Below the pieces are notes generated by a model. It saw nothing but the letters and a program-made list of their open reading frames with translations, ran no database searches and was not told where the DNA came from. The translations under genes and the position numbers were made by a program. From an uncultured Syntrophobacteraceae bacterium (GTDB lineage Bacteria; Desulfobacterota; Syntrophobacteria; Syntrophobacterales; Syntrophobacteraceae), in assembly GCA_964603955.1 (NCBI GenBank), contig CAZRWT010000002.1, positions 18,014 to 82,013 of the forward strand: a stretch of DNA of 64,000 nucleotides, given 5' to 3'. Positions 16,243 to 43,705 of the stretch are shown piece by piece; the first letter of the stretch is position 1, and each line of letters begins with the position of its first letter.

Positions 16243-16279
16243 AATCATCTGGTAGCATCTGCCGCGCAGGAATTAGGCC

Positions 16280-16358: not shown

Positions 16359-16361
16359 AAA

Positions 16362-19618: not shown

Positions 19619-19695
19619 GGTGATTTCTCAAAATGAACTCAGCGTGTAAGAAGAAGTGATGTAACCCTGCGAACAAGACAAATCCAGGAGGAATC

Positions 19696-26876: not shown

Positions 26877-29126
26877 TCAATATCCCCGGGCCAGGGCGTC
26901 GGCTGCTTCCTTGAGGTCCAGGTACCACTGGTGTTTGGGGCGGCCGCTTTCCGTGTCCATCTCCGCGAAGGCTTCCTCGATAGGTACTTTTTCGATGCCC
27001 CTTCCGCGCAGGCCCATGGCGTACACCTCCGAGTTCCCGTTTTTCAGGACATCGAGCATGTGGAAGGCGGCGTTGGCTCCCAGGCGGCTGGCGAGGATGC
27101 GGTCGAAGGCCGTGGGGAGCCCGCCCCTCTGGACGTGCCCCAGGATGGCGGTGCGCACTTCGAACTGTCCCTTGCTCTCCTCTTCCATGAGCCGCTGAAT
27201 GAAATCCGTGGTGTAGCGCCGGGAGGAATGTTCGTTGCGCATGAAGATGACCATGCGCTTTCCGCCATCGAAGCTCTTTTTGAGTGTCTTGACGTCTTCG
27301 TTGAGTTCGGCCAGGCTGATGCCGTATTCGGGCAGGTAGGCTTTTTCGGCTCCCGTGGCCAGGGCGCTCATGAGCGCCAGGAAGCCGCACCTGCGGCCCA
27401 TGACTTCCACGATGAAGGTGCGGCGGGTGGCCCCCGCCGTGTGGCGGATTTTGTCCGCCGCTTCGACGATGTTGTTCAAGGCCGTGTCCACTCCGATGGA
27501 AAATTCGGTGCCGGGGAGGTTGTTGTCGATGGTCGCGGGCAGGAGGACCATGGGAATGTTGAGTTCGTCGAATTCCCGGCGCCGTTCCACCAGTTGAGCC
27601 ACCTTTCGGTAGGTGCCCCAGCCTCCGATGGCGATGAGTCCCCGGATGTTGTGGCGGCGGATGTTGGCGGCGATTTCCGCGTAGTCGGTTTCCTTGAAAT
27701 CCACGCGGGCCGTTCCGATTTCCGATCCCGGCCGGTTGACCCAGAGCACCAGTTCGTTCCAGTCCAGGGGGGTGAGCCGCCCCTTGATGAGCCCCACGAA
27801 GCCGTCCCGAACACCAAGAACGGAGGCTCCCTGGTTGATGAGGCAGCGGGCCGCCACGCTCACGGCCGTGTTCATTCCCGGAGAATCGGCGCCTCCCGTG
27901 AGGATGGCCACCGTTCCTTCGTGGGTGCATTCCTGGGCGGGGGTGATGCGCGTGAGCGTCTTGACCAGTTCGAGGGTCTGGATGAAGGAGCCGCCGCGCA
28001 ATTCCTGAGCCCTTGCGTAGTTTCCGTTTTCCACTTCCGCCCGGACGGCCTGGCTCTTTTCCACCACCTCGACCAGGGGGGTGGCCACCACGCGATTTTT
28101 GATCAGTCCCAGCATGTGGCAATGGTCGGCATCGGGGGCGTTCACCAGGGTGTCCACGGCTGCCACTCCCAGCCGGGTGGCCATGATGCGGTCGAAGGCG
28201 GTGGGGGCTCCCCCCCGCTGCACATGCCCGAGGACGGTGACGCGAACATCGAGCTTGAGCCTTTCCGCCAGGATTTGCTTGACTTCGTTGGAGCTGATGA
28301 TGAGCCCGTCGGGATGCCTGGCGCCTTCCGCCACGATGACCATGTGGTGGGGGCGGCCGATCTCGCGGGCTCTCTCGATGGACTTCACCATTTTCTGGTG
28401 CCACCGCAGTTCGAGTTCCTCTTCGGGTACCAGGACCCAGGAGGCTCCTCCCGCCAGGGTGGCGCTCAGGGCCAGGTAGCCGCAATGCCTGCCCATGGTT
28501 TCCAGGATGAAAGTGCGCTGGTGGGACGCCGCCGTGGACGCCAGGTTGTCGATGGCCCGCACGATGTGGTTGAGGGCCGTATCGGCTCCGATGGACATGT
28601 CCGTGCCGTGGAGGTCGTTGTCGATGGAGCCCGGCAGGCCGATGACTTTCAGGGAAGGAGGGGGGGCGGCAGGGGCGGTTTCTTCCTCGCCTTCGTCCCG
28701 GCCCTCGTTTTCGCTTTCTTCGTCATCATCCTTGACCAGGCCTTTGGTCAGTGCTTCCACATGCTCCCGCCACTCGTCGGCCAGGACGTGGGCCCCCATG
28801 AGCGACCCGTCGCCTCCCACGACGATCAATGCATCCAGTCCCAACTCGAGCATGTTCCGGACTGCCAGCCTGCGGCCTTCGGGAGACCGGAACTTTTCCG
28901 ACCGGGCGGTGCCCAGGAAGGTGCCTCCCTTTTGGAGTGCCCCTCCCACATCGTTCCACGAGAGGGGTTTGACGGCGTCCCCCCCCTTGACCAGACCTTC
29001 GTACCCGTCGTAAATGCCGTAAATGGTCAGGCCTCTCTGAATGGCTCTTCGAACCACCGCCCTCACGGCCGCGCTCATTCCTGGAGAATCGCCTCCGCTG
29101 GTCATGACCCCCAAGGTTTTGATCAT
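26877..29126 (-). CDS. pfkA: tandem-fused (two-domain) 6-phosphofructokinase, 749 aa
   Basis: The N-terminal half carries GVMTSGGDSPGMSAAVRAVV, VVGGDGS, PGSIDND, MGRHCG and GHVQRGG. The C-terminal half carries a second, degenerate set: ILTGGADSPGMNTAV, IGGWGT, PATIDNN, MGRRCG and GHVQRGG. An acidic insert DDDEESENEGRDEGEEE sits in the N-terminal half. Confidence 0.9.
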   Translation of the reverse strand: MIKTLGVMTSGGDSPGMSAAVRAVVRRAIQRGLTIYGIYDGYEGLVKGGDAVKPLSWNDVGGALQKGGTFLGTARSEKFRSPEGRRLAVRNMLELGLDALIVVGGDGSLMGAHVLADEWREHVEALTKGLVKDDDEESENEGRDEGEEETAPAAPPPSLKVIGLPGSIDNDLHGTDMSIGADTALNHIVRAIDNLASTAASHQRTFILETMGRHCGYLALSATLAGGASWVLVPEEELELRWHQKMVKSIERAREIGRPHHMVIVAEGARHPDGLIISSNEVKQILAERLKLDVRVTVLGHVQRGGAPTAFDRIMATRLGVAAVDTLVNAPDADHCHMLGLIKNRVVATPLVEVVEKSQAVRAEVENGNYARAQELRGGSFIQTLELVKTLTRITPAQECTHEGTVAILTGGADSPGMNTAVSVAARCLINQGASVLGVRDGFVGLIKGRLTPLDWNELVLWVNRPGSEIGTARVDFKETDYAEIAANIRRHNIRGLIAIGGWGTYRKVAQLVERRREFDELNIPMVLLPATIDNNLPGTEFSIGVDTALNNIVEAADKIRHTAGATRRTFIVEVMGRRCGFLALMSALATGAEKAYLPEYGISLAELNEDVKTLKKSFDGGKRMVIFMRNEHSSRRYTTDFIQRLMEEESKGQFEVRTAILGHVQRGGLPTAFDRILASRLGANAAFHMLDVLKNGNSEVYAMGLRGRGIEKVPIEEAFAEMDTESGRPKHQWYLDLKEAADALARGY

Positions 29127-29169
29127 GATAAAGACCCCCTCATGGTGAAAGTGTAATCTGGTTTTTGCT

Positions 29170-29260
29170 TCTCGTTCCCAAGCGGAGCTTGGGAACGAGG
29201 GAACGAGCTGCTTTTGGTTCCCAGGCCGGAGCTTGAGAATCGGAGGAAAAATTTACACAT
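29170..29260 (+). repeat. MITE-like element, copy C (degenerate, right-end half)
   Basis: TCTCGTTCCCAAGCGGAGCTTGGGAACGAG ... GGTTCCCAGGCCGGAGCTTGAGAA ... AAATTTACACATGG matches the right arm and terminus of the family. Confidence 0.6.
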
Positions 29261-29687
29261 GGAGTACTATGACAGTATTGAAGGCTCAGCTCAACTCATT
29301 TCAGATGGGGGACGAGTTTCCATGACAGCTGCCGATCTCATGGGGGTGCAGGAAAATCCATGTGCTTTTCTTATCAAGCAGCTTGACTTGAATGATGCAA
29401 CTGGTTTAAGAAACGGTTTGAATTCTCAGATGGTGTGAGCTTGCTCCATGCTCTTATATATTTTGTCGGTGAGTCGAAATTTCCAGGTGTTTCTCATGGC
29501 TGCCGGGTGTGAGAGCGAAGAGCAGGAGTGGAAATTTTCCCATTTCCCTTACGAGGTGTCCGGTTTGTCCATTGTCTGCTTCCCCATTATCAGATCATGC
29601 GAAGGGTTGACGTGATTTTTTTGGTCGGGCGGCAGTGGCTGGGGCTCTCGTGTTTCGAGGGGAATGGGTTTTTTTATGGTTTTGTTT

Positions 29688-29703
29688 TGTGATTGTAATC
29701 ACA
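29688..29703. promoter_or_regulatory. perfect TGTGA-N6-TCACA palindrome (CRP/FNR- or Rex-type operator candidate) about 100 nt upstream of hdrA-like gene 1
   Basis: Read directly: tt TGTGATTGTAATCACA tt, with 7-bp arms TGTGATT/AATCACA. Confidence 0.45.
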
Positions 29704-29802
29704 TTAGCAATATGCGCAAACTTCAAACGTTTTTTGTAAGGAGCAGGATATTTTCAACTCGAGGCAACAGCGGGCCTTCTCAAAAGTTCCCTTACGGAGT
29801 GG

Positions 29803-32800
29803 ATGTTCATGAATGAAAAAAAAGCATCTCAGCCAGTAACTGGCGCGGTAATGGTGGTTGGAGGCGGTATCGCCGGGGTGCAGTCGGCTCTCGATCTGGC
29901 GGAGTCGGGCTACTACGTTTACCTGGTGGAAAACAGCCCTTCCATTGGTGGTGTGATGGCGCAGTTGGACAAGACTTTTCCGACCAACGACTGTTCCATG
30001 TGTATCCTTTCCCCCAAGCTGGTGGAAGGGGGCCGTCACCTCAACATTAAACTCATGACCCTGTGCGATGTGGAAGCCCTCGATGGAGAGGCCGGCAATT
30101 TCACCGTGACGGTGAAGGAACGCCCGAGATACATCGATACGACAAAGTGCATCGCCTGCGGGGTCTGTGCCGAAAAGTGCCCCAAGAAGGTCGAGGACAC
30201 CTTCAATGAAGGCCTGGGACCTCGCAAGGCGGCTTACGTCAAGTATCCCCAGGCGGTTCCTCTCAAGTATGCCATCGACGAGGACAACTGTATTTATTTC
30301 AAAAACGGCAAGTGCCGCGCCTGTGAAAAGTTCTGTCCCGCCGGTGCTGTTGATTTCAATCAGAAGCCTCAGACGCACACCGTCCAGGTGGGTTCCGTCA
30401 TTCTCGCCCCCGGCTTCAAGGCCTTCAGCCCCGAAGTCTATGATACCTACGGTTTCGGGAAATATCCCAACGTGATCACCAGCATGCAGTTTGAGCGCAT
30501 CCTGAGTGCTTCGGGTCCCTTCGAAGGCCACCTGGTGCGTCCTTCCGACAAGAAGGAGCCCAAAAAGATTGCCTGGCTCCAGTGCGTGGGGTCCCGCGAC
30601 ATCCACCATGGGGCTCACGGCTACTGTTCCGGCGTGTGCTGTATGTACGCCATCAAGGAAGCGGTCATCGCCAAGGAGCATTCCAAGGAAGGGCTCGATA
30701 CGGCCATCTTCTTCATGGACATGCGCACTTACGGCAAGGATTTCGAGCGCTATTACAACCGGGCCAAAGGAGAGACGGGGGTACGCTTCATCCGGTCCCG
30801 TATCCACAGTGTGGCCACCCTTCCCGGTACCGATGACCTGGTGCTCGAATATGCCGACGAAAACGGTCAGCTTCAAAGTGAAGTCTTCGACATGGTGGTT
30901 TTGTCCATCGGCCTGGAAATCGGCGACGAACTGAAGAAAATGGCGGAAAGAATCGGAGTGGGGCTCGATGCCGATGGGTTTGCGCAAACGAGCTGCTTCA
31001 CGCCCGTGGCCACTTCGAAAGAAGGTGTTTTCGCCTGTGGCGCCTTTTCCGGTCCCAAGGACATTCCCTACTCGGTCATGGAAGCATCCGCGGCATCTGC
31101 GGCATCCGCCGCCCTGCTTTCTTCCGTGCGGGGCACCCTCACCCAGGAAAAGACCTACCCGGCCGAGGAGGATGTGGAAAAAGAAGAGCCGCGTGTCGGT
31201 GTTTTTGTCTGCCATTGCGGCATCAACATCGGCAGCGTGGTGAATGTTCCAGGGGTGAAGGAATATGCCCGGTCCCTCCCCGGAGTGGCTTACGTGGCGG
31301 AAAACCTTTTCACCTGTTCGCAGGACACGCAGCAGATCATTCGCGATGCCATCAAGGAACACAAGCTCAACCGCGTAGTGGTGGCGGCCTGTACGCCCCG
31401 CACCCATGAGCCCCTCTTCCAGGAAACCATCCGCGAGGCGGGCCTCAACCGTTATCTTTTTGAACTGGCCAACATTCGCGACCAGGATTCCTGGGTGCAT
31501 CAGGCCGAACCCGAAAAGGCCACGGAAAAGGCCAAGGACCTGGTGCGCATGGCGGTGGCCAAGGTGGCGTTGCTCGAACCTATCGAGCGCATGAGGGTCG
31601 ATTTGAACCAGGATGCCCTGGTGATCGGCGGTGGTGTTTCGGGCATGAGCGCCGCCGTGAACCTGGCGGACCAGGGCTTCAAGACCTACCTTGTCGAGGA
31701 AAAGCCCGAACTTGGCGGCCATGCCCTCAAGGTGCATAAGACCTGGAAAGGCGAAGATGTTGCTTCCTACGTCAAGGCACTGGTGGACAAGGTCGAAAAG
31801 CATGCCAATATCGAGGTGCTCAAGGGCGCCAAGGTGACCGATGTTTCCGGCTTCGTGGGGCAGTTCAAGACCACGGTGCAGACCGACGGCGCGGCTCGCG
31901 AATTGGAGCACGGGGTGGCCATTATCGCCACGGGCGCTCATTCCCTGGCTCCCGATCTGTACCTCTACGGTCAAAATGATCGCGTGAGCCGCTGGCACGA
32001 CTTGCAAAAAATGCTTGAGGAAGACCCCAAAAAGCTGGACGAGGCGGAAGCTGTGGCCTTCATCCAGTGTGTAGGGTCCCGCGAACCCGAACGTCCCTAC
32101 TGCTCGAAAATCTGCTGTACCGCTTCGGTGCAACAGGCACTGGACCTCAAGGCGAAAAAGCCGGACCTGGATGTTTACATCCTGTATCGCGACATGCGTA
32201 CTTACGGCGGACGGGAAGACCTGTACAAAAAGGCCCGCGAGCAGGGCGTTCTTTTCATTCGTTTCAACCAGGATGAAAAGCCGACCGTGGAAGCCGTGAA
32301 GGACGGCGGCAAGGAAAAATTGCGGCTCACCGTCAAGGACCATATCCTGGGGCGTCCCATCAAGATCGATGTGGATTACCTCAACCTGGCCACGGCCATC
32401 ATTCCCAAGGGCCAGGAAGAGCTGGCCAAGTTCTTCAAGGTGCCCCTCAATGAAGACGGCTTCTTCCTGGAAGCCCACATGAAACTGCGCCCGGTGGATT
32501 TTGCCACGGACGGCGTGTTCATTGCCGGTCTGGCGCATTATCCCAAGCCCATCGAGGAGTCCATCGCCCAGGCCCAGGCGGCGGCGGCTCGGGCATCGAG
32601 CGTGCTGGCCAAGCCCTATGTCGAGGTCGAGCCGGTTGTTTCCGTGGTGAACCAGGATATGTGTATCGGCTGCGGACTCTGTGAAGCTTCCTGTCCCTTC
32701 GGGGCCATTCGGCTGCACAAAATCGTCGGCAAGGGGTATCGAGCTGAAACCATTTCCGCATCCTGCAAGGGCTGCGGTGTTTGCGCCGCGTCGTGTCCCA

Positions 32801-32877
32801 TGAAAGCCATCGACATGATGCATTTCCGTGACCGTCAAATCTGTGCTGCGATTCGTGCGGGTGGTGCACGTCAATAG
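29803..32877 (+). CDS. hdrA: large HdrA-like flavoprotein (internally duplicated HdrA core; HdrL-like), Cys form
   Basis: 1024 aa. First FAD site VVGGGIAGVQSALDLAESG; second dinucleotide site VIGGGVSGMSAAVNLADQG. Two copies of the HdrA cluster motif are present: CVGSRDIHHGAHGYCSGVCC and CVGSREPERPYCSKICC. Several ferredoxin-type CxxCxxCxxxCP motifs. Confidence 0.88.
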   Translation: MFMNEKKASQPVTGAVMVVGGGIAGVQSALDLAESGYYVYLVENSPSIGGVMAQLDKTFPTNDCSMCILSPKLVEGGRHLNIKLMTLCDVEALDGEAGNFTVTVKERPRYIDTTKCIACGVCAEKCPKKVEDTFNEGLGPRKAAYVKYPQAVPLKYAIDEDNCIYFKNGKCRACEKFCPAGAVDFNQKPQTHTVQVGSVILAPGFKAFSPEVYDTYGFGKYPNVITSMQFERILSASGPFEGHLVRPSDKKEPKKIAWLQCVGSRDIHHGAHGYCSGVCCMYAIKEAVIAKEHSKEGLDTAIFFMDMRTYGKDFERYYNRAKGETGVRFIRSRIHSVATLPGTDDLVLEYADENGQLQSEVFDMVVLSIGLEIGDELKKMAERIGVGLDADGFAQTSCFTPVATSKEGVFACGAFSGPKDIPYSVMEASAASAASAALLSSVRGTLTQEKTYPAEEDVEKEEPRVGVFVCHCGINIGSVVNVPGVKEYARSLPGVAYVAENLFTCSQDTQQIIRDAIKEHKLNRVVVAACTPRTHEPLFQETIREAGLNRYLFELANIRDQDSWVHQAEPEKATEKAKDLVRMAVAKVALLEPIERMRVDLNQDALVIGGGVSGMSAAVNLADQGFKTYLVEEKPELGGHALKVHKTWKGEDVASYVKALVDKVEKHANIEVLKGAKVTDVSGFVGQFKTTVQTDGAARELEHGVAIIATGAHSLAPDLYLYGQNDRVSRWHDLQKMLEEDPKKLDEAEAVAFIQCVGSREPERPYCSKICCTASVQQALDLKAKKPDLDVYILYRDMRTYGGREDLYKKAREQGVLFIRFNQDEKPTVEAVKDGGKEKLRLTVKDHILGRPIKIDVDYLNLATAIIPKGQEELAKFFKVPLNEDGFFLEAHMKLRPVDFATDGVFIAGLAHYPKPIEESIAQAQAAAARASSVLAKPYVEVEPVVSVVNQDMCIGCGLCEASCPFGAIRLHKIVGKGYRAETISASCKGCGVCAASCPMKAIDMMHFRDRQICAAIRAGGARQ

Positions 32878-32963
32878 ATATCGATAGATAGCTGTTTTTT
32901 GAACCTCTTGAATCCTCCGGGGCCTTGCGGGGCTCCGGAGCCCCATGAAACAGGAGATGTGAA

Positions 32964-33722
32964 ATGAGTCAAACTTTCGAGCCGAAGATTCTGGCCTTCC
33001 TATGCAACTGGTGTGCATATGCCGGGGCCGACCTGGCGGGCGTGTCCCGCTTTCAATACCCGCCGACCATCCGGGTCATCCGCACCATGTGCTCGGGCCG
33101 CGTCGATCCCACTCACGTGGTGGAGGGGTTGAAGAGCGGCTTTGACGGTGTCTTCGTCTTTGGTTGACACCTCGGCGACTGTCATTACCTGGAAGGTAAT
33201 GTTTATACCCAGAAGCGTATGCGCGTTGTGTCCCGGTTGCTGGAACTGGCCGGTATCGGCAGTGACAGGATGCACCTGAGATGGGTGAGTGCCGCGGAGG
33301 GACAGATTTTCGCGGATTTTGTAAAGGAATTGAGCGCTGTCATCGGTGAAAAGGGCCCCTTCGATCCCAAGGAGCATCAGTTGAAGCTGGCCGCTGTGGA
33401 GGGAGCATTGAATTCTCCTCGCCTCAGGTGGCTTTTGGGCATGGATCGGCAGCTCACCGAGCGGGAGAATGTGTATCACCATAAGTTGGACGATGCGGCT
33501 TATGAGAAGCTGGTGGATCAGGCGACGGAAGAAGAGTATCAGAAAGCCATGATCCTGGAGGTTCTCAAGGATGGGCCGCAATCAGTGCGCGAAATCGCAG
33601 GCAAGAGCGGGCTGCCGATTTACACGGTGTCTCAGCTGCTCGGTGACATCGAAAAGGCCGGTAAAATCGAGTTTCACGGCTACGAAGGGACCACACCGAA
33701 GTTCATCAGGCTGGCGGCATAG
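32964..33722 (+). CDS. mvhD: MvhD-like protein with in-frame UGA (probable Sec at 33165..33167) and C-terminal winged-helix-like extension
   Basis: Track ORFs 32964..33167 and 33219..33722 share a frame, and the only stop between them is this TGA. VFVFG-TGA-HLGDCHYLEGN aligns to VWVSGCHPGDCHYIEGN of the paralog at 37032. The C-terminal region is ILEVLKDGPQSVREIAGKSGLPIYTVSQLLGDIEKAGKIEF. Confidence 0.8.
33183..33201 (+). other. putative bacterial SECIS-like hairpin for UGA 33165
   Basis: CATTACC tggaa GGTAATG: a 7-bp perfect stem starting 15 nt after the UGA, with a GG-containing loop. Confidence 0.55.
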
Positions 33723-33845
33723 GTCCGCGTGGTTTGTGTGATGGGGCGGACGCCGCGAGGGGAGGGGGCTTCGATACAGGTTCCCGGTCTTCGGGGTGCT
33801 GCCCGTAAACGCTAAAGTAGCAGAGGAAACGACAGCAGGATAAAA

Positions 33846-36800
33846 ATGATGAACGCTAGCAATAACAATAAAGTCGGCGCTGTAATGGTCGTCGGAGCCG
33901 GCATCGCCGGCATGCAGGCGGCCCTGGACCTGGCAGATTCAGGTTATTACGTCCATCTCGTGGACCGCTCACCCACCGTGGGCGGGATCATGGCTCAGCT
34001 GGACAAGACGTTCCCGACCAACGACTGTGCCATGTGAGTCATCTCACCCAAACTGGTCGAGGTCGGCCGGCATCATAATGTAAATATCATCACCAACTCT
34101 TCCGTTGATTCTCTGGAGGGGGAAGCTGGAAACTTTACGGCAAAGCTCAAAACTCAACCGAGGTACATCGATCCGCTGCGCTGCACCGGTTGCGGCGACT
34201 GCGCCAAGGTGTGCCCCGTGACAAGCGTCAACGAGCACAACTGTGGACTGGACAAGCGTGCGGCTACCTATATCCGCTATGCTCAGGCCGTGCCCCTGGT
34301 TTTTGCCATCGATACGGACATCTGTATCGGGTGCGGCCTTTGTGAAAAAGTGTGTCTGGCCCAGGCCATCAAGTACGACGATCAGGCCCGCTACACCGAA
34401 GTGAAGATCGGGTCCGTCATTTTGGCCACCGGTAACGACGTGTTCGATCCTTCTCATTTCGATACCTACAGCTACGCTCAACTTCCCAACGTGATCACCA
34501 GTATGGAGTTCGAGCGTATTCTCAGTGCTTCCGGTCCTTATATGGGCCATCTCATGCGGCCCTACGACCGGGAAGAGCCCAGAAAGGTCGCCTGGTTGCA
34601 ATGCGTGGGTTCCCGAGACACGCACCACTGTGACAATCCCTACTGTTCGGGCGTGTGTTGTATGTATGCCATCAAGGAAGCCGTCATCGCCAAGGAGCAT
34701 TCGCACAGCGGCATGGAGGCGTCCATCTTCTATATGGACATGCGCACTTACGGAAAAGACTTCGAGCAGTATTACGACAAGGCCAAGGAAGAAGGCGTGC
34801 GATTTATCCGGTCGCGCGTCCATTCGGTGGAACCGGTGGGGGATGGAGACCTCGAAATCACCTATGCGGATGAAACCGGCCAGGTCAAGCAGGAAGTGTT
34901 CAACCTGGTGATCCTTTCCGTAGGGTTCCAGGTAGGGAAGGAAGGCATCGAGCTTGCTGAAAAGCTTGGTATCGACCTCAATGAAAACCGTTTCGTCAAA
35001 ACCGACAGTTTCACCCCCGTGGCCACTTCGCGGGAAGGTGTGTATGTCTGCGGAACCTTCCAGGGTCCCAAGGACATTCCCCAGTCCGTGATGGAAGCAT
35101 CGGCGGCGGCGTCGGCATCCAGCCTCCTTTTGAGCGACGCGCGCTGGACCGAAGCCACGGTCAAGGAAAAGCCCACGGAAAGAAATATCATCGGTGAACG
35201 CCCCCGCATCGGCGTGTTTGTGTGCCAGTGCGGTATCAACATCGGCGGCATCGTGAACATTCCCAAGGTGCGGGAATATGCCCGTACCCTGCCTTATGTG
35301 ACTTATGTGGAAGACAATCTCTATACCTGTTCCCAGGACACCCAGGTGAAAATGGCCCAGGTGATCAAGGAACAGGGGATCAACCGCGTGGTGGTGGCTG
35401 CCTGTACGCCTCGTACTCACGAGCCTCTCTTCCAGGAGACTCTGGCCAACGCGGAACTGAACAAGTACCTCTTTGAAATGGCCAACATTCGAAACCAGGA
35501 TTCCTGGGTGCATTCGGGCGATCCCGTGAAAGCCACGGAGAAAGCCATGGACCTGGTGCGCATGGCCGTTTCCAAGGTAGCCCTCCTCGAACCCCTCAAG
35601 GAATCGGAACTGGGAGTGACGAGGAAGGCCATGGTGGTCGGCGGCGGTGTTGCCGGCATGGTGGCGGCCAAGGAACTGGCGGACCAGGGGTATCCCGTGT
35701 ACCTCGTGGAGAGGTCTGCACAGTTGGGCGGCCAGGCGAGGAAGCTGTTCCAGACCTGGAGGGGCGAGAGCATCCCGGCCTATGTGGATGAGCTGGCCAA
35801 AGAAGTGGAAAACCACCCCAACATCACGCTTTACCTGAACAGTGAACTGAAAAACGTGGACGGGTTTGTAGGGAATTTCAAGTCTACCATTCAAAACGGC
35901 GGTGAACCGGAACTCGTCGAGCACGGGGTCACCATCATCGCCACGGGTGGTCGAGAACTGCAACCCGAGGAATATTGCTATAAAAAACATCCCCGTATCG
36001 TGACGCATCAGGAACTGGATCAGCGGTTCGCTGAGAAAGATCCCAGTCTCAAGAGCATCAACAGTGCCGTTTTCATTCAGTGCGTGGGCTCGCGAGAACC
36101 TGACCGTCCCTATTGCAGCCGAGTTTGCTGCACCCATTCCGTGGAGAGCGCTCTCGAGCTGAAAAAGCTCAATCCCGAAAGTGATGTGTATGTGCTCTAC
36201 CGGGATATGCGGACTTACGGGGAACGTGAATTGATTTACCAGGAAGCCCGCAAGAAAGGTGTGATCTTCATCCGCTACTCCCTGGACAACAAGCCCCAGG
36301 TGGAAGTGGTGAACGACAAGGTCCAGGTGACCGTGTTCGATCCCATCCTTCAGCGGCCCATCCGTGTGGTGAGTGACCTGGTGACGCTGGCGACGGCCAT
36401 CCTTCCCAATGAAACCGATGCCCTGTCTCAGTTTTTCAAGGTACCGGTCAACGCGGAAGGGTTTTTCATCGAGGCCCATGCCAAGCTGCGTCCCGTGGAT
36501 TTCTCCACGGACGGTGTGTTTTTATGCGGTCTGGCCCACTATCCCAAGGCCATTGACGAGAGCATCGCTCAGGCCAAGGCTGCGTCGGCCCGCGCCGCGA
36601 CCCTCCTGGCTCGCGACTCGATTTTCTTCAGTGGGATGGTGGCCTACACGAGGCCCATCGATTGCAGCAGCTGCGGGGTTTGTGTGAGCATCTGCCCGTT
36701 CAGTGCGCCGCGTTTCATCGAGACGGGGCGGGATGCGGGCAAGGCGGAAATCAACCCGGCTCTTTGCAAGGGCTGCGGGCTTTGCGTGGCTTCGTGCCGT

Positions 36801-36866
36801 TCGGGTGCCATCGGGCTGCGAGGCTTCGATGACTCCCAGATTTTTGCCATGATCGATAATGTTTGA
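33846..36866 (+). CDS. hdrA: large HdrA-like flavoprotein, selenocysteine form (UGA at 34035..34037)
   Basis: Track ORFs 33846..34037 and 34209..36866 share a frame, and I read no other stop between them. [21 protein letters not shown] aligns to FPTNDCSMCILSPKLVEGG of the paralog at 29803. The rest is collinear with paralog 1 ([37 protein letters not shown]). Confidence 0.85.
34053..34070 (+). other. putative bacterial SECIS-like hairpin for UGA 34035
   Basis: CTGGTCG aggt CGGCCGG: a 7-bp stem including 2 G-U pairs, loop AGGU, starting 15 nt after the UGA. Confidence 0.5.
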
Positions 36867-37031
36867 TCCATTCTTCGAGCCTTTTTTTTCATGGGCGGAT
36901 GAAGTCGGACTTCCTCTGCCCATGGCTCGGTTTGAGAGAGAGTTTGAAACGAGCTGAAGCCCTTTTGGAAAGTTGGAGCACAATCGAGCGCGAGTGTCGC
37001 TTCAGTTTCAGTTTGAAATAGGAGAACTTAC

Positions 37032-37463
37032 ATGTCCGATTGGGAACCGAAAATCGTAGCCTTCCTGTGCAACTGGTGTTCGTATGGGGCGGCGGACCTC
37101 GCAGGCGTCAGCCGCATGCAGTATCCGCCGAACTTTCGTGTCATCAGAGTACCTTGTACAGGTCGAATCAATCCTAAATTCATTCTTTCCGCCCTGCGTC
37201 ACGGCGCGGATGGGGTATGGGTGTCCGGATGCCACCCCGGAGATTGCCATTACATCGAGGGGAACCTCTACGCGCGCCGGAAATTTGCCCTTTTGAAAAA
37301 CATGTTGGAGCATATGGGCATCGAGCCCAAACGTCTCCATTTTTCATGGATTTCTTCCGCGGAATCCACCAAGTTTGCCGATGTGGCTCGCGAAGTGATC
37401 CGTACGGTCAAGGAAGCAGGTCCGGCTCGACATTTCATCAAAAAGCAAGCTGAGGTGGCGTAG
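37032..37463 (+). CDS. mvhD: MvhD/FlxD-like protein (methyl-viologen-reducing hydrogenase delta subunit family), Cys form
   Basis: 143 aa. Motifs KIVAFLCNWCSYGAADLAG, RVPCTGR and VSGCHPGDCHY. Confidence 0.88.
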   Translation: MSDWEPKIVAFLCNWCSYGAADLAGVSRMQYPPNFRVIRVPCTGRINPKFILSALRHGADGVWVSGCHPGDCHYIEGNLYARRKFALLKNMLEHMGIEPKRLHFSWISSAESTKFADVAREVIRTVKEAGPARHFIKKQAEVA

Positions 37464-38414
37464 ATGCAAGCATATACCGAACGGATTCGAGAGGCGGCGA
37501 AACGCTTGTTGAGTGAGGGCAAGGCGGATGTGGTGATCGGATTTCGCAAGGGCACCATTCCCTTCATGAACGAGCCCTACCTTGCCAAAACGGCCGAACA
37601 GGTCGATCAGCTCATGTGGGACGGCAACTGTGGTGTGAACCTCGCCAATTATCTCACCAAGAGGACGGATCGCGTTGCCGTTGTGGCCAAGGGGTGCGAT
37701 TCGAGAAACATCGTGGAGCACATTGTCGAGAACCAGGTCAAACGCGACAACCTCCACATCATCGGAGTCCCCTGCAAGGGGATGATCGACAAGCGTCGCA
37801 TCAACGGCGAACTCAAGGGCAAGGAGCCTTTGACCGTCGAGGAAACGGAAAAGGAAATTCAGATTAAGGGCCGTGACTGGAACTTGACGCTGGATCGTAA
37901 GGAATTCCTCCAGGAAAATTGTGCCATCTGTATCCACCGCAATCCCGTCATTTACGATGAGCTGGTGGGTGACCTGGTGGAGGAGCAGAAAGACGTTGAT
38001 CGTTACGCCGACGTGAGGAAGATCGAGGCCATGGGTGCCGAGGAGAAATGGAAATATTTCGACGATCTCATCTCCGGGTGCATCCGCTGTTATGCCTGCC
38101 GCAACGCCTGTCCGGCATGCTATTGCCCGACCTGCTTCGTGGATGAGTCGCGGCCTCAGTGGGTGGGAAAATCCACTGATCCCACCGACACGCGCACCTT
38201 TCACTTTTTGAGGGCTTACCACCTGGCGGGGCGTTGTACCGATTGCGGCTCCTGTGAGAGGGCCTGTCCCGTGGGCATCAAGGTACGCCAATTCAATAAG
38301 AAGCTCGAGAAGGACGTCAAGGAACTGTTCGATTACGAAGCCGGGATCAACCCGGATGTGCGCCCGGCTCTCGACTTCTATCGACCCGATGATCCCCAGG
38401 GATTCATCAAGTGA
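37464..38414 (+). CDS. 4Fe-4S cluster protein (FlxB/FlxC- or FrhB-related)
   Basis: 316 aa. The start ATG directly follows the mvhD stop. Motifs CIRCYACRNACPACYCPTC and CTDCGSCERACP. Confidence 0.7.
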   Translation: MQAYTERIREAAKRLLSEGKADVVIGFRKGTIPFMNEPYLAKTAEQVDQLMWDGNCGVNLANYLTKRTDRVAVVAKGCDSRNIVEHIVENQVKRDNLHIIGVPCKGMIDKRRINGELKGKEPLTVEETEKEIQIKGRDWNLTLDRKEFLQENCAICIHRNPVIYDELVGDLVEEQKDVDRYADVRKIEAMGAEEKWKYFDDLISGCIRCYACRNACPACYCPTCFVDESRPQWVGKSTDPTDTRTFHFLRAYHLAGRCTDCGSCERACPVGIKVRQFNKKLEKDVKELFDYEAGINPDVRPALDFYRPDDPQGFIK

Positions 38415-38557
38415 TCCCGTCTCCCGGCCGGCGGCGTTTTGCGTCGCGGTACCCATGGAGACGCATGAATGTATGGACCTTGTTGGACCTGGGAGCGGCT
38501 TTTTCATCCAACAGTCGATCACGGGTAGAAGAACTCTGCTGAAAAAGGATTGAATTC

Positions 38558-39604
38558 ATGTCGGAAATTTATATCTCCAAAGAAAAATTTCCAGAAGTCG
38601 TAGGACAGCTCATGAGCCGCGGTCGTGTCTATGGACCCGTGTTTCAAGGGATGTATCATGAGTTTGCCCGGCTGGAGAAACCGGAAGACATAGACCTCGG
38701 CTTTCAGAACACGCGCCTTTCGCCAAAGGAGCTTTTTCATCCTCAATGTGAAAGGATGTTCACCTATTCCCTGGCCAAGGACGATCCCGAGTGTTGCATC
38801 GTCAAGGAAGCTCCCAAGGATTACTCGCCTCGAGTGGTTTTGGGCATCCGTCCCTGTGACGCCAAGGCGTTTCAACTGGACGACTGCAACTTCGACACGG
38901 AAACCATCAAGGACCCCTGGTGGGTGGAAAGAAGAAAAACCACCACCCTGGTGGGGCTTGCCTGCAACACCCCTTGCAACACCTGTTTTTGTACCACGGT
39001 GGGTACCGGCCCCTTCGATACATCGGGACTGGACGCGCTCATGGTGGATGTGGGAGACGGCTATGTGATCCGTGCCGTCACGGACAAGGGCAAAGAATGC
39101 ATCGGGGCCGTGAAGGGCGCTCAAGCGGTGCCGACCCCCGCCGCAGAAAAGGAAGCCCAGCTCAAAAAAGCGGCCGAGGACGGCATGGGCCAGGTATTCG
39201 ATATGAAGCCCATCTACGAGAAAAAGACCCTGGACCTTTTCAACGATCCCCTTTGGGATGAGGTCCAGTTCGCGTGCATCAACTGCGGAACCTGCACTTT
39301 TGTATGCCCCACCTGCTGGTGCTTCGACATTCAGGACGAAGTTCAGGGAGATGCGGGAGACCGCTTGAAAATGTGGGATTCCTGCATGTTTCCCCTGTTC
39401 ACCTTCCATGGGTCGGGTCACAATCCGCGCTCTCAAAAGCTTCAGAGGGTTCGGCAGCGGTTCATGCACAAGCTCAAGTACTATCCCGAAAAGTACGGAA
39501 ACGGACCGACTTGCGTGGGTTGTGGTCGCTGTGTGAAGTCCTGCCCGGTCAACATCGACATTCGACATGTGGCTCGCCTCATGTCCGCAGCCTGCAGTTG
39601 TTAG
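38558..39604 (+). CDS. 4Fe-4S dicluster protein (AsrA / sulfhydrogenase-beta / FlxB/C-like)
   Basis: 348 aa. Motifs CINCGTCTFVCPTCWCFD and CVGCGRCVKSCP. Positioned directly upstream of an AsrB/HydG-like flavoprotein. Confidence 0.7.
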   Translation: MSEIYISKEKFPEVVGQLMSRGRVYGPVFQGMYHEFARLEKPEDIDLGFQNTRLSPKELFHPQCERMFTYSLAKDDPECCIVKEAPKDYSPRVVLGIRPCDAKAFQLDDCNFDTETIKDPWWVERRKTTTLVGLACNTPCNTCFCTTVGTGPFDTSGLDALMVDVGDGYVIRAVTDKGKECIGAVKGAQAVPTPAAEKEAQLKKAAEDGMGQVFDMKPIYEKKTLDLFNDPLWDEVQFACINCGTCTFVCPTCWCFDIQDEVQGDAGDRLKMWDSCMFPLFTFHGSGHNPRSQKLQRVRQRFMHKLKYYPEKYGNGPTCVGCGRCVKSCPVNIDIRHVARLMSAACSC

Positions 39605-39634
39605 ACCTGCGCGCTCATAAATGGAGGAACGAAG

Positions 39635-40477
39635 GTGAGGAATCCTTATCTGCCTTATCCTGTCCGTATCGAGTCCATCGTGACGGAAACGGAAGATCGC
39701 AATCTCAAGACGTTCAAGTTCGTCTTTCTCAACAAGGAAGACGAAGAGAGCTTCAAATACATTCCCGGCCAGTTTGCCGAGCTTTCCGTGCCGGGCCAGG
39801 GCGAAATCCCCATCGGTATCGCCTCGTCCCCCACGGAAAAAGGCTTCATCATGTTCACGGTCAACAAGGTGGGGAAGGTATCGAGCTACATGCACAACAT
39901 GCAGGTCGGCGACATCATGGGTGTGCGCGGCCCCCTGGGCAACTGGTACCCCTGGGAAACGCTCGAGGGCAAGAATATCGTCATCATCGGCGGTGGTTTT
40001 GCCTTCACGACCCTGCGCTCGTCCATCGAGTACATGTTGCAGCCCGAAAACCGCTCCCGTTTCGGGAAGATCGACGTGGTTTACGGCGCCCGGACCCCCG
40101 GCCTTTTGCTCTACAAGGACCAGTTGGCGGCCTGGGAACAGCGGGACGACATCGACATGCACATCACCGTGGATTCCAGCAACGACCCCAACTGGAAGTA
40201 CAACGTGGGTTTCGTGCCGGCGGTGACCAAGGAGAAGGCCCCGAGCGCGGAAAATTCCTACGCCATCATCTGCGGGCCCCCCATCATGATCAAGTTCACC
40301 CTGCCGGTGCTGACCGAACTGGGATTCCCGCCCGAGCGGATCATTTCCAGTCTCGAAATGAGGATGAAATGTGGCATCGGCATTTGCGGTCGCTGTAACC
40401 TGGGGACCGAGTATGTTTGTAAGGACGGTCCCGTTTTCACGTTGGAAAAGCTTTCCCAGTTGCCCAACGAGTATTGA
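39635..40477 (+). CDS. FAD/NAD(P)H-binding oxidoreductase with C-terminal 2Fe-2S (AsrB / HydG / PyrK / FlxA-like)
   Basis: 280 aa, GTG start with GGAGGA RBS. Motifs FKYIPGQFAEL, VIIGGGFAFTTLRS and a C-terminal CGIGICGRCNLG. Confidence 0.8.
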   Translation: MRNPYLPYPVRIESIVTETEDRNLKTFKFVFLNKEDEESFKYIPGQFAELSVPGQGEIPIGIASSPTEKGFIMFTVNKVGKVSSYMHNMQVGDIMGVRGPLGNWYPWETLEGKNIVIIGGGFAFTTLRSSIEYMLQPENRSRFGKIDVVYGARTPGLLLYKDQLAAWEQRDDIDMHITVDSSNDPNWKYNVGFVPAVTKEKAPSAENSYAIICGPPIMIKFTLPVLTELGFPPERIISSLEMRMKCGIGICGRCNLGTEYVCKDGPVFTLEKLSQLPNEY

Positions 40478-40641
40478 TTTCGAGCATTGTTTTTTGCTGT
40501 GAAGCCTCGTGCATTGTCCTCGAGCCGGGGGCGATGCGCGGGGAAGACGTCTCACGGAAAAAGTGCTTCAAATGAAGAGTACCGTGTGTTATAGGCTTTA
40601 AGCGAGCCATCTACTTGAAAAACATTTCAGGGGAGAGAATT

Positions 40642-41862
40642 ATGGAGCCATTGCTGTTGACAAAGCGCGATAAGCGCAAACTGGCGAGCCAATACGCCGA
40701 CCTGTGCCTCACCTGTGGCACTTGTTCCGGTGGCTGTCCGGTCACAGGTGTTGACGGCCTGGATGTGCGGAAAGTCGTGCGCCTGGCCTTGCTCGGGTTG
40801 GATCAGGAAGTGATCGACTCGAAATTTCCTTGGGTTTGTACCCTCTGTGGACGGTGTGAGCACGCATGTCCCATGAACATCGACCTCCTTGCCCTGCTGC
40901 GGTCCGCCCGTAGCAAAAGAGCCAGGGACAAGGTGCCCGGTGTGCTGCACAAGGGTGTCGAGATGTGCTTGAAGACCGGCAACAACGTGGGCATTCCCAA
41001 GGATGACTTTGTCTTCCTGCTGGAAGATCTGGGAGTGGAGTTGGCCGAGGAACTGCCGGGTTTCGAGGTTCCCGTGGACAAAAAGGGAGCCAAGTACCTT
41101 TTCACCATCAATTCCAAGGAACCCTTCGCCGAACCCGAAGACATGATGTACTGGTGGCGTATCCTGTATGCCGCCAATGAATCGTGGACGGTGCCGTCGG
41201 AAAACTGGGAAGGTGTCAACTGGGGTCTGTTCACTGGTGACGACGAGGCCATGAAGGAAATCGTCGGACGCCTGGTGAAGAACTACAAGGAACTCGAGTG
41301 CGAGTACCTTGTCTTACCCGAATGAGGCCACGCTTACTATGCGACCAGGCTTGGTCTGCAAAAATGGTATGCCGACGAAGGCGTCAAGTTCCTCAGTATT
41401 CATGATCTCCTCACTTCGTATGTGAAAGAGGGTCGGATTAAACTGGACAAGACGATTCATCATCATCTGACCACGTATCACGATCCTTGCAACTATGCGC
41501 GTAAGAGCGAGCGCACTTTCGGCCACGGCTACTACGAGGAGCCCCGTTGGGTGACTCAGCAGTGCTGTGAGAATTTCGTGGAAATGTATCCCAACCGCGC
41601 CAACAATTTCTGTTGCGGTGCCGGCGGCGGTGCCTGGGCTTCCCCCTACGTGGAAGAGAGAATCTTCTACGGCAGGACCAAGGCCAAACAAATCAAGGAC
41701 ACCGGGGCCAAGCTGCTCATCGCTCCGTGTCACAACTGTCGTGACCAGATCATGAAGAGCCTCCGCAAGGAGTACGATTTTGAAGATGTAGAAGTCAAAT
41801 ACCTCTGGGAGCTGGTGGCCGACTCTTTGATCATCGAGCCCCGCGAGGAAGCCGAAGAATAA
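40642..41862 (+). CDS. fused HdrC/HdrB-type (HdrD/DsrK/GlpC-like) Fe-S protein with in-frame UGA (probable Sec at 41323..41325)
   Basis: Start at MEPLLL (GGGAGAG RBS). N-terminal ferredoxin motifs CLTCGTCSGGCP and CTLCGRCEHACP. Track ORFs 40615..41325 and 41422..41862 share a frame, and the only stop between them is this TGA. The C-terminal CCG domain reads DPC...CCGAGGG...PCHNC. Confidence 0.72.
41341..41359 (+). other. putative bacterial SECIS-like hairpin for UGA 41323
   Basis: GCGACC aggctt GGTC(t)GC: 6 bp with one bulge, a GG-containing loop, starting 15 nt after the UGA. Confidence 0.4.
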
Positions 41863-41891
41863 AGATTGTTCGGTTGACTCCATGAAACGAA

Positions 41892-41935
41892 AGCCCCAGA
41901 ATCGCGCCGTCGGCGTGTGCATGGGGCTTTTTTTT
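41892..41935 (+). terminator. intrinsic terminator after the hdr/flx-like operon
   Basis: AGCCCCA ...23 nt... TGGGGCT followed by an 8-nt T-run. Confidence 0.6.
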
Positions 41936-41964
41936 GCCCTCTCAACCACAAATCAAGTGTGGGT

Positions 41965-43188
41965 ATGAAAAAGAAACGAGACACCAAAAAAGCAAAAAAG
42001 AGCAGCGTGACTCTCTCCCGGGAAGACCAGCTCGAGTTGCAGATGATCCTGGATCGCCTTTCCGTCCAGAATCCTGATGGAGAGAGCTTCCATAATTACC
42101 TGGAATCGCTTGCGGGAATCCTTGGGAACCGGGAGGAATTCACTCTCGCTTTCCTGGAAGATTTGAGTAGGAAGCCCACGGTGGCGGGATTCAAAGTGTT
42201 CCAAAAGCTGAAGGATATTGTGAGGGGATCGGATAACAAGAGAGCCGTGAGGCAGGCGGCCTACAGGTTCGAGCAAAAAGGTTTTACCGTGGACGAGGGG
42301 AGTGAGGCTCGAGAAAAAGTTGTACTGGTTTCCAAAGAAGAGCGCAAAGCGGCGGCTCACCTCATTTCCATGGGAGGGACTTTCGGTTTTGTGGCAGCCA
42401 TCGTTCCGATCGAGGGTTATCCTGTTCCCATGGCTTTGACCGTTTACGCGCATGTTGCATCGGAAGCCATCAAGGCAAGCGTGACTCAGAGCTCCCACAG
42501 TGTTTATCGGGATTACCTGCGGATGGTTGCCGGAGAAGTTCCTGGATCAAATATCTGTGAGGTGCCCATCAGCCATGCGGCTCGTTTGGTGTTCGAATTG
42601 CCGGATTTGCTCGGGAGGCATGGGTATGTGGTCGAACTGGAAAGGGCTAAGGAACTCCTGAAACCCTACCATGATCCTCAAAAACCTCCACATATTCATG
42701 TTTTGATGGAAAAAATCGAGCATCCGGGCGAGGCGATACGGGCGGTTCGTATCCGGGAACTGATGGAGCACCTGGACCTTTCATGGCTCTTGTTTTCCCA
42801 GGAAGAACTGGCACCGTATCGCGATGATCTGGAAAGTTCGCGCAGCACCGTGCTCGTGCTGTCGACGGATATCATGCAGGATCGCACACAAGCCTTGTTG
42901 AAGCGGGCAGCCGACTCCTTGTGCGTCGGCAATAAAAAGCATTTCTACATCCGCTTTTTCGAAGAACAGGCACTGGTGTTTTATCTTTCCGGCATGATGA
43001 ATGCCGCTAAAGACGCCTGGATCACGGCACAACACCTTGCATCGGATCTGCCGCCCGGTGAAAATCCTGTTGTCGTCCAAGTGATTCTCTCGTCCATACA
43101 TGAACACTGGCCGGAAGCAAGCGAAGTGGCGCAGGAAGAACCGGAGCCTTACGAAACGACCGATTCAGGGTTGCTGATTCTGCGGTGA
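41965..43188 (+). CDS. hypothetical protein (no recognisable domain)
   Basis: 407 aa from MKKKRDTKKAKKSS. Coding-like composition. Located after a terminator and before yjbQ. Confidence 0.55.
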   Translation: MKKKRDTKKAKKSSVTLSREDQLELQMILDRLSVQNPDGESFHNYLESLAGILGNREEFTLAFLEDLSRKPTVAGFKVFQKLKDIVRGSDNKRAVRQAAYRFEQKGFTVDEGSEAREKVVLVSKEERKAAAHLISMGGTFGFVAAIVPIEGYPVPMALTVYAHVASEAIKASVTQSSHSVYRDYLRMVAGEVPGSNICEVPISHAARLVFELPDLLGRHGYVVELERAKELLKPYHDPQKPPHIHVLMEKIEHPGEAIRAVRIRELMEHLDLSWLLFSQEELAPYRDDLESSRSTVLVLSTDIMQDRTQALLKRAADSLCVGNKKHFYIRFFEEQALVFYLSGMMNAAKDAWITAQHLASDLPPGENPVVVQVILSSIHEHWPEASEVAQEEPEPYETTDSGLLILR

Positions 43189-43300
43189 GCGGGGCGACTG
43201 TTCATGGATGGTGCCCAAAGTATGCGTTCCCACGCAGGAATGTGGGAATGAGGGGCAAGTGGTTGTGGTGAAACCTCAAACTTCGAAGGGGAGCTGAGCA

Positions 43301-43699
43301 ATGTTGGAAACCATTCAGGTCAATACTCCGGATCACGGTGTCATGGTGGATATCACCGATCTCGTGTCCCATAGGGTCAAGGAAAGCGGCGTGCAAAGCG
43401 GAATCTGCATGGTTTATGTGCCGCATACCACTGCGGCAGTAACCATAAATGAGGGTATCGATCCAGATGTCATGGACGACATCCTCAAAACCCTGGATAA
43501 GGTGATTCCCTGGCGCGCCGGTTACAAGCACACCGAGGGCAATTCGGCGGCACACATTAAGGCCATGCTGACGGGTGGGAGCTGTCACCTCATCATCGAC
43601 GGAGGACGCCTGATGCTGGGTACCTGGGAGCGTATTTTCCTGTGTGAGTACGATGGGCCGAGAACCAGGAAAATACGGATCAAGATCATGAGAGATTGA
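43301..43699 (+). CDS. yjbQ: YjbQ-family protein (UPF0047, secondary thiamine-phosphate synthase)
   Basis: 132 aa. Motifs GICMVYVPHTTAAVTINE, HTEGNSAAHIKAML and GTWERIFLCEYDGPR. Confidence 0.88.
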   Translation: MLETIQVNTPDHGVMVDITDLVSHRVKESGVQSGICMVYVPHTTAAVTINEGIDPDVMDDILKTLDKVIPWRAGYKHTEGNSAAHIKAMLTGGSCHLIIDGGRLMLGTWERIFLCEYDGPRTRKIRIKIMRD

Positions 43700-43705
43700 G
43701 GGGAT

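Follow-up and report, generated by a model that had tools for sequence, protein, structure and literature searches.

The 64-kb stretch of DNA analysed in this study, referred to as the window, comes from an uncultured Syntrophobacteraceae bacterium and carries an operon of the Flx/Flox-Hdr type. The gene order is hdrA1, mvhD1, hdrA2, mvhD2 (flxD), flxC-like and flxB-like genes, an flxA-like gene, and a fused hdrC-hdrB (HdrD/DsrK-like) gene. All genes lie on one strand, with gaps of 0–165 nucleotides (nt). An original prediction had described two tandem hdrA-mvhD modules that use selenocysteine (Sec) and cysteine reciprocally. Its coordinates and motifs were exact: module 1 has Cys in HdrA1 and TGA in MvhD1, and module 2 has TGA in HdrA2 and Cys in MvhD2. 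With a probability of about 0.8, the operon encodes a single Flx/Flox-Hdr bifurcating or confurcating complex with three Sec residues decoded by SelB and selenocysteine insertion sequence (SECIS) elements, and the reciprocal pattern is incidental.

At least 167 related loci (L numbers) were gathered by scanning genome contigs and metagenome contigs with peptide patterns (FLCNWCSY, CHLGDCHY), and statements on relatives refer to the matches listed. The nearest relatives among these were L002 and L088 (76–78% identity) and L001, a 2.8-kb fragment (95%). The closest named ones were Syntrophobacter or Syntrophobacteraceae metagenome-assembled genomes (MAGs). L002–L004 and L088 showed full synteny with the operon, including the upstream phosphofructokinase (PFK) gene. 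In L002, a 5.6-Mb contig whose MvhD1 is 78% identical, the synteny extended from this gene to genes past hdrB.

Proteins of the operon and their in-frame UGA codons

The two HdrA proteins both contain FAD/pyridine-nucleotide-disulfide oxidoreductase and ferredoxin domains (Pfam). HdrA2 aligned with the solved HdrA chains (8rvu, 8rvv, 5odc, 7bkb) at E = 1e-193 to 1e-160 by phmmer, the best match being 8rvu_a (1e-193). HdrA2 matched methanogen HdrA in three permuted stretches. The alignment assigned residues 14–371 to the TrxR-like FAD domain with inserted ferredoxin, residues 449–622 to the HdrA N-terminal domain, and residues 834–1004 to the C-terminal part of HdrA. All HdrA domains are present, with their order permuted and duplicated in a protein of about 1000 amino acids (aa), and each HdrA here is therefore called a fused double HdrA. 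HdrA1 was assigned to HdrA through 57% identity with HdrA2 over 1005 residues (BLASTP). It starts with a TrxR-like FAD domain with inserted ferredoxin; an HdrA N-terminal domain and another TrxR domain come next, and a ferredoxin domain lies at the C-terminus. HdrA1 scored below the NCBIfam HdrA cutoffs (996.7 vs 1100 bits for HdrA2 model NF040770; 742.7 vs 1400 for NF041778), and it is classed on these comparisons as an HdrA-family member, not an equivalog of the methanogen enzyme. An exact-sequence database look-up of HdrA1 returned no record.

The CxxC motif of HdrA1 is Cys64/Cys67, and the Cys67 codon is TGT at 30001–30003 in the context ...FPTNDCSMCILSPK. In hdrA2, the sole internal stop is the TGA in TNDCAM-U-VISPKLV, which is followed by 942 further codons in frame. 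The paralog alignment placed this TGA opposite the HdrA1 Cys.

The sole internal stop of mvhD1 is the TGA in VFVFG-U-HLGDCHY, with 184 more in-frame codons behind it. MvhD1 matched Pfam FlpD (PF02662) at 163.7 bits against a gathering cutoff of 22.3 bits, and 5odc_D at 3e-45. A total of 7898 MvhD1 homologues were found, many of exactly 252 aa, and the 252-aa architecture is common to thousands of them. The C-terminal 115 residues (window 33370–33722) form a conserved extension with weak winged-helix matches (DprA_WH, DUF742). MvhD2 has Cys at both canonical Sec columns, one of them encoded by TGC 37230–37232 in VWVSG-C-HPGDCHY. MvhD1 and MvhD2 shared 52% identity over 128 residues (BLASTP), and the MvhD1 TGA fell opposite the MvhD2 Cys. 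The earlier statement that each UGA faces a Cys of the in-window paralog was thus confirmed for both pairs. Both proteins scored below the NCBIfam VhuD cutoff of 215 (115.9 and 134.2), and both are assigned by sequence to the MvhD/VhuD/FlpD family, not as VhuD equivalogs. Sequences identical to MvhD2 and to the 316-aa Flx subunit were found solely on metagenome (Logan) contigs.

The original prediction had proposed an alignment with known HdrA and VhuD proteins. This alignment placed both UGAs on canonical Sec columns (5odc, 8rvu; PMC13518236, PMC4989117). HdrA2 U64 aligned to residue 197 of 5odc_A and to the matching residue of 8rvu_a. This column holds Sec197 in Methanococcus maripaludis and Cys197 in M. 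thermolithotrophicus; it corresponds to BamE Cys62 by numbering offset only. In M. maripaludis HdrA, a Cys-x-x-Sec pair, of which Sec197 is the second member, is located between an Fe-S cluster and the bifurcating FAD (PMC13518236). MvhD1 U68 aligned to residue 67 of 5odc_D. The two Sec residues of archaeal VhuD are separated by 50 codons (PMC4989117), a spacing that fits the 51 positions between the MvhD columns of Cys16 (CNWC) and Cys67 (G-C-H). By alignment, the U68 column would be the second of the two Sec positions of VhuD.

Five MvhD cysteines (C14, C17, C43, C68, and C73; CxxC, C, C, C) were invariant in 30 homologues. In the M. marburgensis structure, Cys16 is an additional, non-ligand Cys (PMC13580544). 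Because the five cysteines are invariant and Cys16 is described as a non-ligand, MvhD column 67/68 is by elimination probably a ligand of the [2Fe-2S] cluster. A literature search found no statement that MvhD Cys67 ligates this cluster. The MvhD interface with HdrA Cys202/Cys205 includes Cys16, His68, and Asp71, and the latter two are placed against a ligand held by this HdrA cysteine pair (PMC13580544).

Both window TGAs fall on family-invariant Cys columns, and homologous sequence continues in frame past each, with the downstream frames conserved at 57–95% identity. The same TGAs were found in independent assemblies, namely L001 (95% identity) and dozens more. The placement of TGA at both sites is far beyond chance. 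Sec forms of HdrA and MvhD are documented in Deltaproteobacteria (PMC1794560, PMC2702500), and Sec insertion is predicted for the window UGAs. The occurrence of Sec-HdrA and Sec-VhuD/MvhD in both Methanococcales and deltaproteobacteria, as stated in the original prediction, agreed with the literature (PMC13518236, PMC4989117, PMC1794560, PMC2702500).

A third UGA, absent from the original prediction, was found in the HdrD-like gene. The "HdrC" open reading frame (ORF) stops at this TGA, and the "HdrB" ORF continues in the same frame, so that the joined translation reads LVLPE-U-GHAYY at this point. The fused 406-aa product matched the NCBIfam models HmcF (196.6 bits), TmcB (186.1), and DsrK (164.1), each in one stretch across the UGA over residues 20–398, with all three scores below the equivalog cutoffs. 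The HdrC part matched 8rvv_C. Because the fused product aligns in one piece with these models, it is predicted to be an HdrD/DsrK-like selenoprotein. It would correspond to the GlpC-type Fe-S oxidoreductase, a recognised selenoprotein family of Deltaproteobacteria (PMC1794560). L002, L010, and L088 also have TGA here, and the codon of a sister subfamily (L011, L051, L064, L097, and L154) is TGT/TGC.

The gene set by which Flx/Flox-Hdr is recognised, with FlxA, FlxB, FlxC, FlxD, HdrA, and HdrBC or HdrD clustered, is present in the operon. NCBIfam matches of the 348-aa iron-sulfur subunit (ShyB/HydB/AsrA) and of the FlxA/FloxA-like subunit (sulfhydrogenase gamma/AsrB) were below cutoff. A promoter and terminator scan of 29100–43800 gave counts at or below those of shuffled controls and no intergenic terminator between the modules, a result that cannot decide transcription units. 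NAD(P)H as the electron donor of the complex, and likewise the physiological acceptor, are inferred, and both HdrA-MvhD modules would be part of one complex.

Table 1. Features of the Flx/Flox-Hdr operon in the window
Feature	Position	Strand	Description
hdrA1	29803..32877	+	ORF, 1024 aa, fused double HdrA; Pfam Pyr_redox_2/Fer4
mvhD1	32964..33722	+	252 aa, MvhD/FlpD-family [2Fe-2S] adaptor, one UGA read through (translation)
UGA, predicted Sec68 of MvhD1	33165..33167	+	Column of MvhD Cys67, directly before His68
Putative SECIS of mvhD1	33183..33201	+	CAUUACCU-GGA-AGGUAAUG, start 15 nt past UGA (fold)
hdrA2	33846..36866	+	1006 aa, fused double HdrA, one UGA read through (translation, Pfam)
UGA, predicted Sec64 of HdrA2	34035..34037	+	C61-x-x-U64 motif (translation, phmmer alignment)
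Putative SECIS of hdrA2	34053..34070	+	CUGGUCG-AGGU-CGGCCGG, start 15 nt past UGA (fold)
mvhD2 (FlxD/FloxD-like)	37032..37463	+	143 aa, minimal MvhD; Pfam FlpD 188 bits
Flx/Flox iron-sulfur subunit	37464..38414	+	316 aa, Pfam Fer4_8; start codon abuts mvhD2 stop; syntenic in L002 and L088
Flx/Flox iron-sulfur subunit	38558..39604	+	348 aa, Pfam Fer4_22; resembles sulfhydrogenase beta subunit, AsrA
FlxA/FloxA-like FAD/NAD(P)H-binding subunit with Fe-S domain	39635..40477	+	280 aa; Pfam NAD_binding_1, FAD_binding_6, DHODB_Fe-S_bind
HdrD/DsrK/HmcF-like protein	40642..41862	+	406 aa, HdrC-like and HdrB-like (CCG) parts joined by UGA (translation)
UGA, predicted Sec228 of HdrD-like protein	41323..41325	+	
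Putative SECIS of HdrD-like gene	41341..41359	+	GCGACCA-GGCU-UGGUCUGC, start 15 nt past UGA (fold)

Hairpins downstream of the UGA codons

A candidate SECIS hairpin was found past each of the three UGAs (Table 1). The stems of the mvhD1 and hdrA2 hairpins are 7–8 base pairs (bp), with G residues in the apical loop. The relation between hairpin and codon was investigated in 168 sequences (the related loci plus the window), and a perfect stem was defined as at least 7 bp starting 10–25 nt past the Sec/Cys codon. For HdrA, such a stem was present at 87 of 90 UGA sites vs 10 of 149 TGT/TGC sites. For MvhD, the corresponding values were 82 of 84 UGA sites and 16 of 133 Cys sites. To control for amino-acid constraint, only sites sharing the same peptide downstream were compared. 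The full set of stem pairs then formed in 86/88 Sec vs 0/13 Cys sites of HdrA, and in 60/77 Sec vs 2/20 Cys sites of MvhD. Compensatory stem variants were also found (CAUUACCA/UGGUAAUG and UGCCACUA/UAGUGGCA). The hairpins are kept where the codon is UGA and degraded where it is TGT/TGC. The hairpin of the HdrD-like gene was likewise kept in L002, L010, and L088.

The MvhD1 orthologue of L002 (L002 10202–10262) has a TGT codon, yet it retains a perfect CAUUACCUGGAAGGUAAUG hairpin. This indicates a remnant SECIS and a putative recent change from Sec to Cys. No remnant hairpin was found at the Cys sites of window HdrA1 and MvhD2, including downstream of the mvhD2 TGC. In archaeal Sec genes, the SECIS lies in the 3'-untranslated region (3'-UTR). 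The sole archaeal Sec site collected (L057) had no hairpin after the codon, as expected under a 3'-UTR SECIS.

The reciprocal Sec/Cys pattern

The tandem hdrA-mvhD-hdrA(-mvhD) unit is widespread in Desulfobacterota and other phyla, and its all-Cys form occurs in Asgard archaea, Bathyarchaeia, Thermoplasmata, Dehalococcoidia, Clostridia, and WOR-3. The states of at least 93 tandem clusters were recorded in the order HdrA1/MvhD1/HdrA2/MvhD2 (U, Sec; C, Cys). At least a dozen Sec/Cys combinations were present, with about 20 distinct recorded states. All-Cys was the commonest state among the clusters listed, and the U/CU/U/U type (U/U/U with Sec in MvhD2) was the commonest Sec state. The other states included C/U/C in which MvhD2 carries Sec at its alternative canonical site (CxxU), C/C/U/C (L002), C/U/U/U (L088), and U/U/U/C. 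In relatives, MvhD2 carries Cys or else Sec, which may occupy one or the other of its two sites. The three-gene pattern C/U/U of the window recurs in L007, L013, L051, L088, and L116.

All-Cys hdrA-mvhD-hdrA-mvhD units were seen in L021–L058 (e.g., L021 7146–14014), from Asgard (Promethearchaeota), Bathyarchaeia, and Thermoplasmata MAGs. Four to five consecutive hdrA-mvhD copies were present in L028 (Methanomassiliicoccales).

In a rough neighbour-joining tree, the HdrA1 and the HdrA2 sequences of Desulfobacterota formed two distinct orthologous clades, and MvhD2 grouped with short MvhDs of other phyla. The 52–57% identity between the paralogs and the separate HdrA1 and HdrA2 clades rule out that the two modules are recent duplicates. 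The modules are paralogs of long standing that have been conserved together with flx and hdrCB genes in a single operon. Exchanges between Sec and Cys had been tabulated for FrhD/MvhD and HdrA by 2006 (PMC1794560), and mixed Sec and Cys paralogs of the HdrA and MvhD families were catalogued for Desulfobacterium autotrophicum in 2009 (PMC2702500). Because relatives with the tandem unit show many Sec/Cys states, frequent and independent Sec-Cys switching is suggested. The reciprocal pattern of the window would be an ordinary snapshot of this switching. The swapped pair had been considered unusual and meaningful, a view that does not agree with an old, widespread unit with so many combinations.

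An adaptive complementarity was considered, in which one Sec per HdrA-MvhD junction suffices on either partner and the two modules form differently tuned, subfunctionalised electron-entry junctions. MvhD His68/Asp71 lies beside the HdrA CxxC/U pair, so that both Sec columns surround one interface (PMC13580544, PMC13518236; alignments). Exactly one Sec per module is present in the window, and HdrA1 and HdrA2 form separate orthologous clades. In the second MvhD of L008 (13981–14420) and L010 (13937–14380), Sec occupies the other canonical site (CCSY-U and CCNY-U) and the G-C column is Cys, and HdrA2 of both loci has Cys, the opposite distribution to window module 2. The same module 2, with Cys in HdrA2 and Sec at CxxU of MvhD2, was found in L091, L093, L095, and L100. 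However, no one-per-junction rule was found: module 1 of L002 is Sec-free, many loci have Sec on both sides, and all-Cys is common. Junctions with zero, one, two, and three Sec all exist, and Methanococcales carry three (PMC4989117, PMC13518236). The explanation also presumes which MvhD pairs with which HdrA. It is considered unlikely; subfunctionalisation of the modules, as suggested earlier, is possible in itself, but the Sec pattern is no evidence for it. A related proposal, that Sec is interchangeable in function between the MvhD residue before His68 and the second HdrA CxxC residue in two-module Hdr/Flox enzymes, is similarly doubtful. If it were true, the reciprocal pattern of the window would be a natural "swap experiment" on a step called unresolved in recent structure papers on Hdr and class II benzoyl-CoA reductase (BCRII).

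A selenium-availability backup had also been suggested, in which the modules are alternative isoenzymes used according to selenium supply, like Vhu/Vhc and Fru/Frc of Methanococcus. Sec/Cys paralog pairs do stand side by side, and such a replacement was speculated on for Hdr/Mvh paralogs of Db. autotrophicum (PMC2702500). However, neither module is Sec-free, as MvhD1 needs Sec in module 1 and HdrA2 in module 2. The HdrD-like subunit, the only HdrB/C-type gene of the operon and presumably common to both modules, also needs Sec. The backup role is unsupported because each module and this subunit need Sec. The genes are also co-strand with short gaps, and no intergenic terminator or promoter signal rose above shuffled controls. 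The paralogs share only 52–57% identity, and their joint conservation extends across phyla and to the all-Cys form. This explanation is very improbable. Least credible is that the TGAs are genuine stops of split genes or pseudogenes, or assembly errors. Gene callers do split these genes (e.g., 67 + 167 aa and 63 + 944 aa), and Sec machinery was not seen within the window. Against this, numerous independent assemblies share these TGAs column for column, and each coincides precisely with an invariant Cys column. Their presence is closely linked to a conserved downstream hairpin that decays with TGT/TGC, and the downstream frames are conserved.

Several points weigh against the reading of an incidental pattern in one selenoprotein complex. 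The scan patterns contained Cys, which biases the recoverable Sec/Cys states, and state frequencies are not population estimates. The loci are phylogenetically related, and the independence presumed in the Fisher p-values is therefore overstated; even so, the hairpin-codon effect has an unambiguous direction. The exact C/U/U/C state was found solely in the window, and partly in L001, among the matches listed, and it may conceivably have an adaptive value specific to its lineage. Single-sequence hairpin energies were no better than those of shuffled controls (z of about 0 to −1), and comparative evidence was relied on because these z-scores were not significant. No Rfam SECIS match was obtained with gathering thresholds over the whole window or with permissive E-values over 32900–41600. 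This result is uninformative because bacterial SECIS elements are short and gene-specific. No selA, selB, or selD (Pfam, 30 further ORFs) and no tRNA-Sec (tRNA scan) were found within the window. The three independent genes with UGA plus hairpin would give indirect support for a Sec-decoding genome.

The preferred reading is that the operon encodes a flavin-based electron-bifurcating or confurcating Flx/Flox-Hdr complex of an uncultured Syntrophobacterales-like bacterium, with three UGAs read as Sec: MvhD1 U68, HdrA2 U64, and HdrD-like U228. Decoding would be bacterial. The stem-loop 15 nt past the UGA, with G in its loop, would bind SelB and Sec-tRNA while the ribosome is at the UGA. In published Hdr structures, the positions of the HdrA and MvhD Sec residues are found where electrons pass from the [2Fe-2S] cluster of MvhD to the Cys-x-x-Cys/Sec pair of HdrA beside the bifurcating FAD. 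Sec and Cys would have been interconverted independently in individual lineages, with the reciprocal pattern as a by-product, which would be neither a designed pairing nor a selenium backup.

Neighbouring genes and comparison with known systems

A conserved ORF of about 404–436 aa lies directly past the Hdr/Flox genes (window 41878–43185), and its counterpart occupies the same place in L002 (18813–20027); no Pfam or NCBIfam match was obtained for either. Upstream in the window, NrfH-like (NapC/NirT) and NrfA (cytochrome c552) genes of a cytochrome c nitrite reductase were found at 9774–11753. Just upstream of them is a low-GC stretch (8001–10000; GC 0.45 vs about 0.57 elsewhere) with a DUF2975 gene on the minus strand (8855–9418). 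A complete 2-oxoglutarate dehydrogenase-type cluster occupies 11865–18450 (E1, 11865–14732; E2, 14887–16239; E3 dihydrolipoyl dehydrogenase, 16906–18450), and it adjoins the Hdr/Flox operon of a presumed strict anaerobe. The molybdopterin oxidoreductase at 19660–21762 (701 aa) carries a Cys motif at its N-terminus and is free of in-frame TGA codons, which rules it out as a Sec-type formate dehydrogenase. A non-canonical DnaK-related cluster on the minus strand (45498–51468) comprises two Hsp70-like genes (973 aa with DUF3731; 647 aa) and a DUF2760 gene.

Standard gene callers cut short or split the mvhD1, hdrA2, and fused hdrC-hdrB (HdrD-like) genes, and the annotation should show them as selenoproteins with read-through. 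Hairpin presence follows the UGA state at the level of the single codon. This gives a clean natural control that could help to train bacterial SECIS detection in HdrA and MvhD genes. The Sec sites cluster at the HdrA electron-entry junction and bear on how one-electron Fe-S chemistry reduces the bifurcating flavin, a question for which the window alone is not decisive.

By published description, the operon resembles the Hdr/Flox cluster Sfum_1969–1977 of Syntrophobacter fumaroxidans, which has two hdrA genes, MvhD-like FlxD, FlxC, FlxB, the FAD/NAD(P)H subunit FlxA, and HdrD (PMC5947623). It differs from FlxABCD-HdrABC of Desulfovibrio vulgaris, where only one HdrA is present and HdrB and HdrC are separate proteins according to the account of Ramos et al. 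2015 cited in PMC5947623.

The HdrA and VhuD proteins of Methanococcales have identical Sec columns (HdrA CxxU, VhuD G-U-H) (PMC13518236, PMC4989117), and their genes are likewise adjacent. In contrast to the 3'-UTR SECIS of Methanococcales, the hairpins of the window are in frame right past the UGAs. The HdrA proteins of the window, of about 1000 aa, are fused and permuted double HdrAs, and the operon has no Vhu hydrogenase; its donor module is of the Flx (NAD(P)H) type.

BamE of the Geobacter metallireducens class II benzoyl-CoA reductase is a fused HdrA dimer. Its N-terminal TrxR domain has Cys59-x-x-Cys62 and a Lys near the bifurcating FAD, and its second domain has Gln instead of Lys (bioRxiv 10.64898/2026.04.10.717634). 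HdrA1 and HdrA2 resemble this description, with CxxC/U at 64/67 and 61/64, Lys285/Lys277, and Gln/Glu in the second CC-motif (alignment inspected). BamF is a selenoprotein MvhD with an added winged helix (bioRxiv 10.64898/2026.04.10.717634). By this description, MvhD1 is similar in having a C-terminal winged-helix region, but Sec19 of BamF is at the N-terminal CxxU column, whereas the MvhD1 Sec is at the G-U-H column. No BamB, BamC (tungsten AOR), or BamGHI genes were found among the annotated ORFs of the window (Pfam).

The selenoproteins of Db. autotrophicum HRM2 include HdrA, HdrL, MvhD, and HdrD, and this genome has multiple hdrA/hdrL-mvhD loci that mix Sec and Cys paralogs (PMC2702500). 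The partner genes there are dsr, fdh, and mvhAG, whereas those of the window are of the Flx type. Sec-HdrA, Sec-MvhD, and Sec-GlpC/HdrD in Syntrophobacter-like bacteria, the canonical Sec columns, Sec-Cys turnover, and a Flox cluster with two hdrA genes are already known. The window adds one more example of syntrophic and sulfate-reducing Desulfobacterota that are rich in Sec-HdrA, Sec-MvhD, and Sec-HdrD and often switch between Sec and Cys.

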